In this document: piece by piece, positions 57,834 to 63,577 of the stretch | Numbering within the stretch: the stretch's first letter is position 1 | Layout: each line of letters starts with the position of its first letter | Virus record (IMG/VR): IMGVR_UViG_3300014204_013734 | Span: 288,001-352,000 of that record | DNA: 64,000 nucleotides | Reading direction: 5' to 3' (one strand) | DNA from: a virus | Lineage: Duplodnaviria; Caudoviricetes | The notes under the pieces: generated by a model | Seen by the model: only the letters and a program-made list of their open reading frames with translations | Told to the model about the DNA's origin: nothing | Databases searched by the model: none | Program-made: the position numbers and the translations under genes

Positions 57834-58691
57834 ATGGCTATGCCCGCGACCGTCAAGTTGTTGGTGATTGATGATGACGCCGAAGACCGCCGCTTGGTCC
57901 ACGACTGGCTAGACGATGCGGATCGGGTCAACTTCAGCGTAGAGGAAGCGTCTACGGCGGAAGAGGGCCTGGAAAAGATGGAAAAAGGCCGGTATGACGT
58001 GGTCCTCCTGGACTATCGTATGCCGGAAAAGGACGGGTTCTGGGTCCTGGAAAGGATGCGTGCCCTTCGTTTGCAAGTCCCTGTTGTCATTGTCACCAGT
58101 CACGGGGACCGTAATGTCCAGACGCAAGCGTTTGAACTTGGCGTTGCGGACTACCTGGAAAAGGGTGCTTTCACTCCTGAACTCCTTGAACGCACTTGTC
58201 TCTATGCCATTGGCCTGAATGAACGGAAAATTTCCGAAACTTCCGGCCCCGGCGTCGGGGTTCTCATGGAACAGTTGGTATCCTTGACCCGTGATTCTGT
58301 CAAGGCCCAGTCTGATACGGCCCAGGAAATCCGGGAAATGCGCCGGGAACTGGCGTCAGGATTTGCATCGGTCAAGGAACAAGCGTCTGAACACGATAAA
58401 AACTGCCAGGACAGGAATACGGCGGTCGTCGGAAAAATAGAAGAACGGGATGCTCCGAAGGGCAAATGGCTTCTGGATTGGATTGCGGTTCACCCGCTTG
58501 CAACCCTGATTCTTGCCCTTATCCTTCTGGCTTCTATTCTCGCACTTGGAGTATTGATTCCCTTGTGGGCGGAACACGTCACGGCGGACCAACTCAAAGT
58601 GTTGAAAGGTTGTGGGATGTTGCTCTTTTTTCCCGTAATGGGATGGGAAGTACACAATGAATCTGACGGAAACGGATCGCAAGGAACTTGA
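57834..58691 (+). CDS. Receiver-domain protein fused to a coiled coil and C-terminal TM segments
   Basis: IDDD, LLDYRMP, VTS and YLEK receiver motifs; hydrophobic LATLILALILLASILALGVLIPLW. Confidence 0.85.
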   Translation: MAMPATVKLLVIDDDAEDRRLVHDWLDDADRVNFSVEEASTAEEGLEKMEKGRYDVVLLDYRMPEKDGFWVLERMRALRLQVPVVIVTSHGDRNVQTQAFELGVADYLEKGAFTPELLERTCLYAIGLNERKISETSGPGVGVLMEQLVSLTRDSVKAQSDTAQEIREMRRELASGFASVKEQASEHDKNCQDRNTAVVGKIEERDAPKGKWLLDWIAVHPLATLILALILLASILALGVLIPLWAEHVTADQLKVLKGCGMLLFFPVMGWEVHNESDGNGSQGT

Positions 58692-60330
58692 ACTTCACAA
58701 GGCGCTTATTGAATTGGGTGGACGCCTTATCAGGAACACGATATCCTTGGAAGAAATGGCATGGTTGGTATTAACCCCGGTCATGCGGTTGACGGGAACT
58801 ACCGTCGGATTTGTGTCCTACATCGACCCGGAAACCAAGGAAAATGTAGGATTCCTGAACGCCCCTGGAATTGCAGCTTGCGTAGAACAGAACCAAGGCA
58901 GAATGGTCTTTCGGTTTCCAACCGGCAAGGACGACCCCTTGTGGGGTTTTAGTCAACCGGATACCCGTACAGGTTTTTTCACAAACAAACCCGTCAAGCA
59001 CCAGATATCTAAAAACATCCCTTCCGTCGTTCGTTTTCCCATTGACAATTTCCTTTCCGTTCCTGTCGTAGCCGGTAGCAACCTGTTAGGCCACGTTGCC
59101 TTGGCTAATAAAAAAGGCGGCTTTTCAAACGAAGACATCCGAATCGTCAACCTGTTAGGGGAACTTTACGGTTTGGCTTTAGACCGCAAATTCTACGAAC
59201 AGGCCTTATTGGATGCCGAACACAAGGCAACGGAAAAGCTGAATCATAGGTTCAGGGCATTCATGGAAGCGACTCCCGACCGGTTGCACATCATCTCTTC
59301 AGACGGGGTTTTCCTTGAATCCCACCGGGGAGCCCTTCCCTTCGTGGAGAGTGATCCCTCTAAATATATTGGCAAGACCCTGCATGATTTGTTTCCTGCT
59401 GATGCCGACAAGATGCTGGACAAAGTCCGGGAAGCATTGGCCATGGACGGGACACCGATCATTTGGGAATACACAATATCCCAACTGCCTGATCATGTTT
59501 TTGAAGGCCATCTCATCAAATGTGGTCCTGATGAAGTAATGACCGTCATCAGAGAAGTCACCCAAGCGAAACAGTTGCAGTCCGATCTTGAACGCAAAGT
59601 CGAAGAACGGACTTTGGAACTCAGCCTATCCAATCAAGCGTTGCAGTCCTTCGCCTATGCAGCGTCACACGACCTTCGGGAACCGTTGAACAAGATACGG
59701 GCATATGGGGAACGGTTTGAACGTACACACCCCAACCTAGATGAAAAAGGCAAGGAATACATCGGTGTCATGGTCACGGCGGCCGAACGCCTGGCCCAGT
59801 TGGTAGAGGATCTATTGGTATATTCCAAGGCGGGCGGGAAAGATGAAGCATCCCCGGTTAAAATCCCCCTAAACAGGCTTATTGAAGAAACCTTGGGGGA
59901 TCTTGACGAATCCGTCAAGAATTCCGGCGCCATCGTAGAAGTCGGGGATCTTCCAACGGTTGAAGGTCACGCTGGAACCTTGCGGGCCGTTTTTCAGAAC
60001 GTCTTGTCAAATGCTCTAAAATTCCATAAAGTGGGACAACCCCCGAAAGTTCTGGTGTCGGGAAGGGTAGACGGTAGTATGGCATTCGTGTCTATACAGG
60101 ACAATGGAATCGGTTTTGATCCGGCATACAAGGAAAAAATCTTCGCTATTTTTAACAGGCTTCACACCCGGTTTGAATATCCGGGTACAGGAATAGGGTT
60201 GGCCCTTTGTCGAAGGCTGTTGGCCCAATGCGGCGGAACCGTAACGGCGGACGCCAGACCCAATGAAGGAGCTGTTTTCACGATCCAAATCCCGCTCAAA
60301 TTCTCCTCTGCATTTCCAAAAGGAACCTGA
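58657..60330 (+). CDS. Sensor histidine kinase (GAF-PAS-HisKA-HATPase_c)
   Basis: AASHDLREPL H-box; NALKF, DNGIG and GTGIGL; FLSVP...LANK GAF end. Confidence 0.92.
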   Translation: MNLTETDRKELELHKALIELGGRLIRNTISLEEMAWLVLTPVMRLTGTTVGFVSYIDPETKENVGFLNAPGIAACVEQNQGRMVFRFPTGKDDPLWGFSQPDTRTGFFTNKPVKHQISKNIPSVVRFPIDNFLSVPVVAGSNLLGHVALANKKGGFSNEDIRIVNLLGELYGLALDRKFYEQALLDAEHKATEKLNHRFRAFMEATPDRLHIISSDGVFLESHRGALPFVESDPSKYIGKTLHDLFPADADKMLDKVREALAMDGTPIIWEYTISQLPDHVFEGHLIKCGPDEVMTVIREVTQAKQLQSDLERKVEERTLELSLSNQALQSFAYAASHDLREPLNKIRAYGERFERTHPNLDEKGKEYIGVMVTAAERLAQLVEDLLVYSKAGGKDEASPVKIPLNRLIEETLGDLDESVKNSGAIVEVGDLPTVEGHAGTLRAVFQNVLSNALKFHKVGQPPKVLVSGRVDGSMAFVSIQDNGIGFDPAYKEKIFAIFNRLHTRFEYPGTGIGLALCRRLLAQCGGTVTADARPNEGAVFTIQIPLKFSSAFPKGT

Positions 60331-60335
60331 AACCC

Positions 60336-60779
60336 ATGCCTGAAACCGCCCCTTTAGTCATTTTCGCTGAAGACGACCTTGAAGATTGGGACCTCATCAA
60401 GGAAGTTCTGGAAGAATGTGAAGAGTGCCGATCCGGCGCCCTCAAATATGAACACGTGGTTGATGGGGTCGCCCTGATGGAACGGTTGACCAATCCCGTA
60501 CCTCAAAAACCAGACATGGTGATGCTGGACCTCAAGATGCCAAAGAAAGATGGTGCGGAATCCTTGGAAGAAATCCGGGCAAATCCGGAACTCAGACACA
60601 TTCCGGTCATTATTCTGACCACTTCCCGTTTGGAAGCCGACATCTTTGAAGCTTATCACCGCGGGGCAAATTCCTATGTTGTAAAACCAGTAACGCACGA
60701 CACCATTAAACAAGCACTCCACGATATTCAGTACTATTGGACTAAAGTAGCCGTTAAGCCATCCAAAAACCATGCCTGA
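60336..60779 (+). CDS. Single-domain response regulator (Rcp1-like)
   Basis: AEDD, LDLKMP, LTTS and GANSYVVKP motifs. Confidence 0.92.
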   Translation: MPETAPLVIFAEDDLEDWDLIKEVLEECEECRSGALKYEHVVDGVALMERLTNPVPQKPDMVMLDLKMPKKDGAESLEEIRANPELRHIPVIILTTSRLEADIFEAYHRGANSYVVKPVTHDTIKQALHDIQYYWTKVAVKPSKNHA

Positions 60780-61309: not shown

Positions 61310-61966
61310 ATGTTAACAAGGGATCAAGTTAAGGAACGTATCCATTACCAGAAGGAATCCCTCACCAAATGTCGCAAAGAAATTCCAATCCTTTGCAAGG
61401 AAGCCGCTACAGAAAAAAACGTTTTTAAAAGTAGGGAGTTGGAACACGAAGCAGCACTTAAACAAGGCGGAAAAGGGGTTGTAGGACAAGAACATCGGGA
61501 ATTTCTTCTTGTTTACGCGTGGATGAGAAACCGTCGTTATCGAACTGTGGAACGACGGACGGCAATTGACAACATAGCTGACCGTTTTCTGGCAGAACGT
61601 TCCTTGGAAAAACTTGTACAGAGAGTTGTGCGACACCTATCTGTCGATCGCGAAGTTATCTGGTTTTGGATGACTTTTGATTTCCCTCCAAAGGATATTC
61701 TGGAAGGAAAGGCTTCGTTCATGGTGGCGGAAATCGCGAAGAAAAAGATGGAGGAAGCGGAAAAAGACGTCCAAGAAGCTGAAAAACATTTGGCTAGAGC
61801 CGAAGCACACTTTGTTGCGGAAAAAGCCAGATTGGAAGCCAGTATCGAATGGGCTCAGGAAAACCTGAAAAAAGCAACCGCTGAAGCAACGTACCGCATC
61901 AAGGCTTTCGCTGAAATCAAAGCTGCCGTCGGGAATACAATTCAATCGGGTGTGGTGAAAGGGTAA
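61310..61966 (+). CDS. Hypothetical helical protein, paralogue 1
   Basis: HREFLLVYAWMRNRRYRTVERRT plus coiled coil. Confidence 0.7.
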   Translation: MLTRDQVKERIHYQKESLTKCRKEIPILCKEAATEKNVFKSRELEHEAALKQGGKGVVGQEHREFLLVYAWMRNRRYRTVERRTAIDNIADRFLAERSLEKLVQRVVRHLSVDREVIWFWMTFDFPPKDILEGKASFMVAEIAKKKMEEAEKDVQEAEKHLARAEAHFVAEKARLEASIEWAQENLKKATAEATYRIKAFAEIKAAVGNTIQSGVVKG

Positions 61967-61973
61967 TTTCAGT

Positions 61974-62633
61974 ATGAAACCGGAAGAATTGAAGAAAGAC
62001 ATTAAGTCCTTAACCGTGTCCCTCATTGAATACCGCAAGAACATCAGGAAATTGATCCTTGAGGCCCGGCAGGAGGAAAAGACCGACGCTGATCGGAATA
62101 TCTTACGCGAACGGGCACAAAAGGCTAAGACCAATAAGGATTACTATGGTAGGAAACAGCGTCATCTTCTTCTGGCCTGTGCCTGGTTGCGTAATTACCG
62201 CTACAGGACCGTAGAAGGACGAACGCTGGCCGACAAGGTAAAGGATCCCTGGGAAGCCCGGATGATACGAGAAAACCTTGCGGAAGCCGTTTCTAATCTA
62301 CTCCCTGTTGGAAGACAGGAAGTGCTTACCTGGATGACGGTAGACCTTGAACCTCGGGAAGTTGAACGGAAGCTGTACCTTGAAGCTTTTGAGAAAGCTG
62401 AAAAAGAAGTAGCGGAAACTTCCGGAGAAACAGAATTCGCCCAGTGGTTTTTATGCGAAGTGACTACCTTTGTCAAACAATTGGAAAACAAAGGCGAAGA
62501 ATCTTTCGTTCTGAATTTGGCCAGAAAACAGAAGGAAAAAGCGGCTAAGACATTAGAAAAAACGAAGGCCCTTCTGGCGGGTAAGCAGAGGGCAAGGGAC
62601 CGTGCAAAAGAAGTTGTTTTCCGGGTAGATTAG
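61974..62633 (+). CDS. Hypothetical helical protein, paralogue 2
   Basis: QRHLLLACAWLRNYRYRTVEGRT plus coiled coil. Confidence 0.7.
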   Translation: MKPEELKKDIKSLTVSLIEYRKNIRKLILEARQEEKTDADRNILRERAQKAKTNKDYYGRKQRHLLLACAWLRNYRYRTVEGRTLADKVKDPWEARMIRENLAEAVSNLLPVGRQEVLTWMTVDLEPREVERKLYLEAFEKAEKEVAETSGETEFAQWFLCEVTTFVKQLENKGEESFVLNLARKQKEKAAKTLEKTKALLAGKQRARDRAKEVVFRVD

Positions 62634-62648
62634 TTTGGAAGTTGTTCA

Positions 62649-62676
62649 TTGACAATTGTAGTACCCAAGTTAGTTT
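62649..62676 (+). promoter_or_regulatory. Sigma70-like promoter candidate
   Basis: TTGACA-N16-TAGTTT; predicted start coincides with the first stem of the folded leader. Confidence 0.5.
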
Positions 62677-62679
62677 TAC

Positions 62680-62968
62680 GTTCCCAAAGAAATTCCAATC
62701 TGTAGGGAAAAACGTTTGTTGAAGAATCTTAAAGGAAATCCTTTAGATTCGCGTTTTTTCCATAAAACATCAAAATGATCGTACAGATTCAGGAATTGGG
62801 AACTCTAAGGTTCCCTTCCCACAAAAGAAGTAGGTTCGCGTTCCTAATGATTTCCATAGGTTAGGTAAGATTTTGGGTAAAAACCGTTACTTAAAAACCA
62901 AAGGGTTTTTAGGTTCACGTTTTCATCCCAAAAATCTGAATAATAACATAGGTTTGGAATGGGACCCT
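62680..62968 (+). ncRNA. Candidate structured RNA (two nested stem domains) preceding the mini-array
   Basis: 62680-62704 pairs with 62782-62803; inner stems 62706-62714/62752-62761 and 62724-62750; 62808-62819/62956-62968 encloses 62868-62877/62927-62937 and 62892-62911. Confidence 0.55.
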
Positions 62969-63158
62969 CTTTAAAGGGGTCCGAACCCCCTTTACACGTT
63001 GAAAGTTCCCCCACCGCCACCTGCCGGACCTTGCCATGCTTTAAAAGGGGATCAGGTCCTCTTTTACACGTTGAAAGAAAACACGTTGAACAATGGGCAT
63101 TCCAGCCTCAGCTTCGGTCCTTTCAAGGGGGATACAATCCCCCTTCACACGTTGAATT
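62969..63158 (+). CRISPR. Cas-less CRISPR-like mini-array: 3 divergent hairpin repeats (37-39 nt), 2 spacers
   Basis: Repeats at 62969-63005, 63039-63077 and 63120-63158 share CTTT..AAGGGG-loop-CCYCTT..ACACGTTGAA; spacer 2 matches 63533-63559 at 24/27. Confidence 0.75.
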
Positions 63159-63190
63159 AAAAGCAACCCATAATTCCAATTGTCCCAAAG

Positions 63191-63225
63191 AAGTCCCCTG
63201 GTTCAAAACCACGGGGCTTTTTTTT
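63191..63225 (+). terminator. Intrinsic terminator after the mini-array
   Basis: CCCCTGGTT-CAA-AACCACGGGG stem followed by T8. Confidence 0.75.
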
Positions 63226-63286
63226 GGCTATGGTCTTTACCAAAGTGGAGGGGCATCCCTACCTCCCCAACTTAAGGAGTCTTAAA

Positions 63287-63577
63287 ATGCCTATGCAGGA
63301 CCGACAAGTAACAATCCTGGACGTAATTGCTGATACCGATGGGGCAGCTTTCCTCGTAGGAAGGAAAGGGAATTCCCATCTATTTGTCATTACGATCACC
63401 GGGGCGGCTACCGTCAAGATACAAGGCCGACAAAAAAGCGGTGCTTGGAAGGATTTGACTTCTACGGCAGCGAATGCCGAATTGAACGTTGATGATTACG
63501 GTTGGTGGGAATTTAGGGCCGTTTCATCGGCGATGGGAATTCCTGCCACAGCTTCGGTCGTTTGGAGTTGGACCTAA
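63287..63577 (+). CDS. Small beta-rich probable virion protein; contains the spacer-2 match
   Basis: AAGGAG RBS; ATVKIQG...WKDL pattern. Confidence 0.65.
   Translation: MPMQDRQVTILDVIADTDGAAFLVGRKGNSHLFVITITGAATVKIQGRQKSGAWKDLTSTAANAELNVDDYGWWEFRAVSSAMGIPATASVVWSWT

Follow-up and report, generated by a model that had tools for sequence, protein, structure and literature searches.

A putative Cas-less CRISPR mini-array with near-self spacers in a megaphage from landfill and groundwater

The Locus and Its Gene Neighbourhood

The DNA analysed here (the window) is a stretch of 64,000 nucleotides that corresponds to bases 288001–352000 of a 381,280-bp IMG/VR virus record. In IMG/VR, this record is labelled as a provirus, 72% complete, that was cut from a contig of ~444 kb, and the product of the 96-aa gene discussed below is also on record on 444 kb contigs. 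The carrier is a phage contig of ~444 kb, a megaphage, and its source is landfill and groundwater. The locus of interest lies near the 3′ end of the window, in a region where the + strand holds nearly all genes, and its features are collected in Table 1.

The 96-aa gene matches no Pfam or PHROG family. Its homologues form five clusters with 57–81% identity, to which a copy on contig L202 is added at 67%. At 90% identity, the group comprises five protein clusters, which is a thin sample. Further upstream, two tandem paralogues of 218 and 219 aa are encoded at 61310–61966 and 61974–62633, neither of which belongs to a Pfam or PHROG family; the relatives L203 and L208 have one copy of this paralogue, immediately 5′ of the 96-aa gene. 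The window also contains a cassette of a receiver, a GAF-PAS histidine kinase and a second receiver (57834–60779), and this cassette is kept in relatives L203–L205. When the phage kinase was looked up for host inference, mixed phyla were returned. Elsewhere in the genome, there is a 905-aa N6/N4 DNA methyltransferase with a LAGLIDADG homing-endonuclease domain (genome 163905–166619; L219:11905–14619), and the first 95 kb encode HNH and other homing endonucleases.

The array described below was found on none of the nine contigs of relatives, which represent five protein clusters. In L202, L203 and L208, the corresponding intergenic region is ~100 nt long and the leader-like region is absent. 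In L203 and L208, a homologous terminator is located directly 3′ of the 220-aa gene. Consequently, the cassette from ~62640 to 63190 is an insertion in the lineage of the window.

Table 1. Features of the array and of the genes downstream of it (window positions unless stated otherwise)
Feature	Position	Strand	Description
Leader-like region	62634–62966	+	AT-rich, ~330 nt, from the stop of the 219-aa gene to repeat 1
Repeat 1	62967–63005	+	8-bp hairpin, then 11-nt single-stranded tail CACGTTGAAAG
Spacer 1	63006–63038	+	33 nt
Repeat 2	63039–63077	+	11-bp hairpin (one G-U pair), then an 11-nt tail identical to that of repeat 1
Duplicated handle	63078–63092	+	AAA + ACACGTTGAACA, partial second copy of the repeat tail; contains GTTGAACA
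Spacer 2 core	63093–63119	+	27 nt, near-copy of the 3′ end of the 96-aa gene
Repeat 3, terminal, degenerate	63120–63157	+	9-bp hairpin, different stem sequence; tail ends in GTTGAAT
Intrinsic-terminator-like hairpin with T8	63195–63225	+	Closes the array transcript; homologous to the terminator after the 220-aa gene of relatives
96-aa gene, function unassigned	63287–63577	+	RBS AAGGAG at 63274–63279; adjoins the fibre gene, as is kept in relatives
Self copy of spacer 2, protospacer-like site	63533–63559	+	Last codons of the 96-aa gene
Fibre-like gene, 1876 aa	from 63594, past the window end (64000), to genome 357224	+	PHROG tail-protein match
Self copy of the L229 terminal spacer	genome 352287–352313 (window-equivalent 64287–64313, just outside the window)	+	Inside the fibre gene, 24/27

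Anatomy of the Array

Between the 219-aa gene and its terminator lie three repeats at CRISPR spacing, 72 and 81 nt apart, in a segment (62634–63290) with a fold z-score of −4.6. The leader-like region that precedes them consists in part of three degenerate hairpin-plus-TAGRTTCRCGTT units (~62720–62755, 62810–62842 and 62888–62921; direct-repeat family D4) with a period of ~80 nt, and it is kept, with small indels, in contig L229, which represents a sister strain. The hairpin that follows the array was not called by a consensus terminator scan, probably owing to its bulge and its loop of 7–10 nt.

The repeats are 36–39 nt long and, when the duplicated handle is counted with the spacers, those of the window are separated by 33 and 42 nt and those of L229 by 35, 46 and 38 nt. 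Pairwise identity among the repeats of the window is only 67–74%, which is unusual for an active array. What they share is structure, as all seven repeats of the two strains (7/7) fold into a hairpin with an 11-nt single-stranded tail on its 3′ side (CACGTTGAAAC/G). Among these seven repeats, the last of which in the window is degenerate, the stems (8–11 bp in the window) co-vary and the tail is invariant, and the end of this tail, GTTGAAAC, is canonical for CRISPR repeats. The repeats of type I-C systems combine a stem of 7 nt with a 3′ overhang of 11 nt, which becomes the 5′ handle of the crRNA after cleavage by Cas5c, and this protein has been reported to recognise the cut site and nucleotides of the handle (PMC8524198). 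To judge by their predicted fold, the repeats studied here, with a hairpin and an 11-nt tail that ends in GTTGAAAC, are of a type I-C-like build.

A peculiarity of this array is that the 11-nt tail, that is, the predicted crRNA handle, is tandemly duplicated before three of the five spacers of the two strains. If processing were canonical, with cleavage only at the base of the hairpin, 15 nt that include the second handle would fill the seed and disable targeting; it is conceivable that Cas5c uses the second copy of the handle instead. A look-up of RNA runs that contain the locus gave none.

No copies of the repeats were found elsewhere in the record, where six other sites with the CACGTTGAA tail motif were examined and did not have the hairpin-plus-tail fold. 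Likewise, the 381-kb record has no canonical CRISPR array, and neither a tRNA nor a known RNA family, including Rfam CRISPR-DR, matches at the array.

Cas Genes and Cognate Arrays

Cas1, Cas6, Cas5d, Cas7 (Csd2) and Cas3-HD were not found in the 381-kb record. A PADLOC scan of 105 ORFs returned mostly methyltransferase families. One weak match of the Cas12f zinc-ribbon type was rejected, as it corresponds to a methyltransferase with a LAGLIDADG insert.

A cognate array was looked for in three collections. Scanning GTDB species genomes for CTTTACACGTTGAAAG gave only chance single matches among the first 100 stretches listed, and no array. The same was the result for an 18-mer ending in GAAAC in JGI metagenome contigs and for the repeat tail in IMG/VR: chance single matches and no array in either case.

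Spacer 2 and the 96-aa Gene

The core of spacer 2 agrees with the end of the 96-aa gene at 24 of 27 positions, on the same strand, and differs from it at positions 6, 12 and 16. This match had been noticed in a preliminary description of the sequence, and it is confirmed here: 100 shuffles of the window that preserve dinucleotides yielded no second site with three or fewer mismatches. In the whole 381-kb record, the 96-aa gene is the best match to spacer 2, and the runner-up reaches 19/27. The same description had placed the match in frame, with synonymous differences at 6 and 12, which holds in the frame of 63287–63577, and had located GTTGAACA before the spacer copy and GCG before the gene copy, as is indeed the case. 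Its view of GTTGAACA as handle-like stands in part, since this motif belongs to a partial second copy of the repeat tail, but it is not the end of repeat 2, which is reached at 63077. Its remark that a sense orientation indicates targeting of DNA and not of mRNA is well taken.

The two synonymous mismatches fall at third codon positions, and the one at position 16 exchanges Thr for Ser. Thr is invariant at this position in the six homologues (6/6), and the Ser codon may have arisen by drift in the spacer. Immediately 5′ of the self site (63530–63532), the codon is Ala (GCG) here and Gly in all five relatives (5/5), which may represent a change on the PAM side.

The extent of the similarity is limited. 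From repeat 2 to repeat 3 there are 42 nt, and the 96-aa gene matches only the last 27 of them. The 5′ edge is sharp and, on the 3′ side, 8 of the next 13 bases agree, weakly and into repeat 3. When the 650-nt intergenic region was compared by BLASTN and TBLASTN with the 96-aa gene and its five homologous clusters, nothing beyond 27 (to 40) nt was found. A plain local duplication, which had been proposed as the reading to be expected if the similarity ran well past the repeat boundaries, is thus not what these edges and searches indicate. A decayed duplicate of the gene was also considered and rejected, as the intergenic region resembles the 96-aa family nowhere else, in DNA or in protein. Separately, the 15 nt before repeat 1 (62952–62966) agree at 13 of 15 positions with 63560–63574, which extends from the end of the match to the stop codon of the gene, and 6 of 500 shuffles reach this score. 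Such likeness may be due to chance or may be a trace of an older spacer.

A Sister Strain with Other Spacers

JGI contig L229 encodes the same 96-aa protein, with flanks that are 96–97% identical to those of the record. At the same site, it has four repeats and three spacers that are unrelated to those of the window. Its canonical repeat is 36 nt long and ends in GTTGAAAC, an exact duplicate of the 11-nt tail (CACGTTGAAAC) precedes two of its spacers (L229:1914–1924 and 1996–2006), and the degenerate terminal tail and the trailer are common to both strains. Three assemblies, namely, the window, L227 and L228, carry the window-type array. Run X3 has differences of the L229 type, and its loose end before repeat 3 agrees with L229; no contig of this run covers 63010–63119, a segment that is exchanged in arrays of the L229 type. 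The occurrence of different spacers at the same site in the two strains means that the spacers turn over, as they do in real arrays.

As in the window, the terminal spacer of L229 resembles a gene of its carrier. This 27-nt spacer C, located after a duplicated handle, matches the fibre gene at 24 of 27 positions, on the same strand and 1.1 kb downstream (the shuffle maximum is 20/27), and its mismatches, at positions 3, 9 and 18, are all synonymous. The fibre gene of L229 carries the same 24/27 allele as that of the window strain, and its 96-aa gene has, at the site of spacer 2, the same allele as well. As both strains carry the same mismatched alleles with or without the corresponding spacer, the mismatches are allelic and are not escape mutations. 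Thus, the differences predate the spacer-bearing lineage or lie outside it, and the mismatches seem best described as allelic differences from an unsampled relative. The 5′ flanks of the two self copies, GCG and ATG, do not point to a consistent PAM.

No match to spacer 1 was found in the record, where its best self hit (21/33) is at the level of shuffles, or in the collections searched; in IMG/VR there is no exact 24-mer of it, and INPHARED gave only a chance match (E = 0.3). Spacers A and B of L229 have no match in the record. Searches of IMG/VR, INPHARED and the contigs of relatives with the five spacers of both strains gave no perfect protospacer, and degenerate exact scans of IMG/VR gave no spacer match. 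The best match to spacer 2 anywhere is the gene of its own carrier (24/27), and the relatives reach 15–22/27, among the five protein clusters sampled at 90% identity. A protein search for more relatives of the fibre gene around the site of spacer C returned nothing.

With the second strain at hand, one may ask if the locus is a CRISPR array at all or, instead, a set of structured non-coding repeats that picked up a scrap of a gene by local duplication or template switching. The weak extension of the similarity on the 3′ side (8/13 bases), the likeness of the 15 nt before repeat 1 to the gene (13/15; 6/500 shuffles) and the failure to find a cognate array in GTDB (among the matches listed), JGI or IMG/VR could be taken to favour this. 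Nevertheless, it is very improbable, as the 5′ boundary is sharp with no other similarity to the gene, the strains differ in unrelated spacers of 33–35 nt, the tail ends in the canonical GTTGAAAC and the mismatches are codon-constrained and not random.

Source and Use of the Spacers

We consider it probable, with a good deal of room for doubt, that the locus is a Cas-less, phage-borne CRISPR mini-array whose spacer 2 derives from the allele of a relative and is used against co-infecting relatives. The array, inserted between the 219-aa gene and its terminator, would be transcribed with the genes of the + strand. Spacer 2 would represent part of a different allele of the 96-aa late gene, and its most likely donor would be a close phage that is unsampled. 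During infection, the array RNA would be cut and loaded by a type I, that is, DNA-targeting, effector of the host, and the loaded effector would be directed against co-infecting relatives that have the matching allele. The allele of the carrier itself would be spared by its three differences and by its changed 5′ flanking codon. In effect, the sites of the carrier have the differences expected of self-sparing: three mismatches each for spacer 2 and for spacer C of L229, and the unique Ala codon 5′ of the spacer 2 site.

The preliminary description had offered two explanations of spacer 2. The first, that it came from the orthologue of a related phage, is the best supported, if indirectly: the array varies between strains, the L229 spacer also has a 24/27 match and the mismatches are allelic, but the perfect match with a consistent PAM that had been anticipated in a related phage was not found in IMG/VR, INPHARED or the contigs of relatives. 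The second, by which positions 6 and 12 would go unread by Cascade and the RNA would repress the late operon of the phage itself, is contradicted by the mismatches of the L229 spacer (3, 9 and 18) and by a mismatch at seed position 7 in a spacer of another array of this genome, described next. Positions 6 and 12 are third codon positions of an in-frame match, and two such positions drawn at random would both be multiples of six with a chance of 1/6. Co-variation of spacer and self target across relatives, which had been expected under this explanation, cannot exist on the nine contigs of relatives (five protein clusters), given that they have no array.

A Second Mini-Array in the Same Genome

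At genome 197039–197255 (L221:7039–7255), ~91 kb before the start of the window, there is a second Cas-less mini-array, unrelated to that of the window, which has five diverged type I-E-like repeats and spacers of 12–26 nt. Two of these spacers are also near-self. The one of 26 nt matches the next gene (genome 198040) at 25 of 26 positions, 0.8 kb downstream and on the same strand; the one of 22 nt matches the preceding gene (genome 196357) at 19 of 22 positions, 0.7 kb upstream and on the opposite strand. Both matches are the best in the genome, and a mismatch of an I-E-like spacer falls at seed position 7. In addition, solitary I-E-like repeats are found on the + strand at genome positions 48978, 53398 and 56251 (L213 and L214), kilobases apart from each other, and these are candidate RNA anti-CRISPRs.

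When the four near-self spacers of the two arrays and two strains are pooled, it is apparent that their mismatches are codon-constrained: seven of ten are synonymous third positions, two are conservative replacements (Thr/Ser and Val/Ile) and one lies at a repeat boundary. With random placement, at least seven of ten mismatches would be at third positions with p ~0.02.

Another possible function of the array is that of an RNA decoy comparable to the Racr anti-CRISPRs, in which the repeats would soak up Cas5c/Cas6 and Cas7 of the host and the spacers would be passengers acquired by host adaptation or recombination. The repeats here keep structure and tail and not sequence, the tested cas genes are absent from the record, the same genome has solitary I-E-like repeats, as do phages that bear Racrs (PMC10651486), and a doubled handle could bind extra Cas5. 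By contrast, passengers are not expected to lie beside their own near-matches four times, with codon-constrained differences, and Racrs are defined as solitary repeats and not as arrays (PMC10651486). We regard the decoy as unlikely.

Self-regulation can be weighed on the same data. It would resemble the CreA/CreR circuits, with a crRNA that binds the gene of the carrier in a register tolerant of mismatches and keeps the late operon repressed. CreA and CreR are mini-CRISPR regulators that are said to lie beside cas operons or a toxin gene and to match promoters through a PAM-flanked seed. With them, the locus shares degenerate repeats on either side of a spacer that partly matches a target, which is adjacent, as in the CreTA and CreR circuits. 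When counted from the second copy of the handle, positions 6 and 12 account for two of the three mismatches, and this only in the case of spacer 2. However, the mismatches at 3, 9 and 18 of the L229 spacer and at seed position 7 of the I-E-like spacer are at positions that Cascade does read. Moreover, the carrier is a phage from which the tested cas genes are absent, and the 27-nt sense match lies at the 3′ end of a coding region, not at a promoter, and pairs with the template strand. Strains swap spacer 2 for a spacer against a different gene, relatives do without any array and, under canonical processing, the seed would be taken up by the 15 nt that separate repeat 2 from the match. Self-regulation is accordingly a far-fetched account of this locus, and the use of the array against relatives is preferred over it.

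Proximity and Orientation of the Near-Self Targets

In this genome, which spans at least 381 kb, all four near-self targets lie 0.4–1.2 kb from their own array, and the chance of one of them falling within 1.2 kb is ~0.006. In all four cases (4/4; p = 1/16), the targets are oriented with the PAM side such that Cas3 would travel towards the array. It is known that, in type I-E systems, Cas3 translocates 3′ to 5′ along the non-target strand, in the direction of the PAM side.

Perhaps, then, the arrays are more than weapons. In a homing-like element, or one that links a killer to an immune allele, the guides of the array would hit rival alleles of genes less than ~1 kb away, a scheme that we hold to be possible but doubtful. 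At the same tentative level, resection of the genome of a co-infecting rival by host Cas3 would run across the insertion site of the array, and recombinational repair templated by the resident genome would copy both the array and the resistant allele into the rival. In a variant that is just as tentative, tight linkage alone would keep recombinants from becoming suicidal. Such a model extends the use of the array against relatives and, if this rather unlikely extension were right, it would account for the closeness of targets that Medvedeva et al. left open. These authors described target proximity to the mini-array as unexplained (PMC6858448), and no publication that links mini-arrays to homing was found in the literature.

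The closeness of four spacers to their targets, in two repeat types and two strains, and the uniform orientation argue for it, as do the resistant alleles at both sites in both sampled strains, which are expected after a sweep, and the classical homing endonucleases that this phage also encodes. Against it, the model is post hoc and draws on four cases, all from one genome, and the guides may be disabled by the duplicated handle; moreover, neither a sensitive allele nor a close strain lacking the array was found. Cas3 is, in addition, bidirectional in some I-C systems, which also counts against the model.

Comparison with Known Systems

Virus-borne mini-arrays with mutated self loci and with targets near the array have been described (PMC6858448; reviewed in PMC11656645), and the locus studied here fits among these mini-arrays of interviral conflict. 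Overall, the pattern fits the known signature of viruses that borrow host CRISPR systems against close relatives, and not that of self-regulation.

The closest counterparts are the Saccharolobus portogloboviruses SPV1 and SPV2 (Medvedeva et al. 2019, PMC6858448), which also have one to few intergenic spacers, a leader and no viral cas genes, whose sister strains differ in the spacers at the same position, and in which the orthologous locus of the carrier is point-mutated and the targets are close to the array. Here, in contrast, the carrier is a bacterial megaphage of ~444 kb, the repeats diverge within the array and the 11-nt handle is duplicated before three spacers.

A second set consists of the mini-arrays and solitary repeat units of phages and prophages (Faure et al. 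2019), as summarised in PMC6858448 and PMC11656645. According to these summaries, they have spacers against adjacent genes of close viruses that spare the carrier and, being Cas-less, rely on the system of the host, as is proposed here. [quoted passage not shown]

The Racr elements (Camara-Wilpert et al. 2023, PMC10651486) are alike in the mimicry of repeats by a phage without cas genes, and solitary I-E-like repeats are present in the same genome as the array. A Racr is, however, a single repeat with no other within 100 bp (PMC10651486), whereas there are three repeats here, spaced at 72 and 81 nt, and the spacers vary between strains and resemble neighbouring genes.

Lastly, T4-like phages have free-standing homing endonucleases that mediate intronless homing. 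In these, as in the arrays, the weapon adjoins its target and the allele of the carrier is resistant through a few substitutions; by analogy, the specificity would here be provided by an RNA guide and a host nuclease.

Significance

The locus adds a well-resolved case, from a landfill and groundwater megaphage, to the small set of virus-borne mini-arrays. It also provides a natural comparison of two strains, in which spacers turn over and the "self mismatches" are allelic. Within one genome, two arrays with different types of repeats follow one rule, by which the neighbour is targeted and the own allele is spared. The duplicated 11-nt handle may inform how such arrays are built or processed. 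Finally, the consistent proximity and orientation of the targets lead to a testable hypothesis, either RNA-guided homing or linkage of a killer and an immune allele, for a proximity that has been left unexplained.
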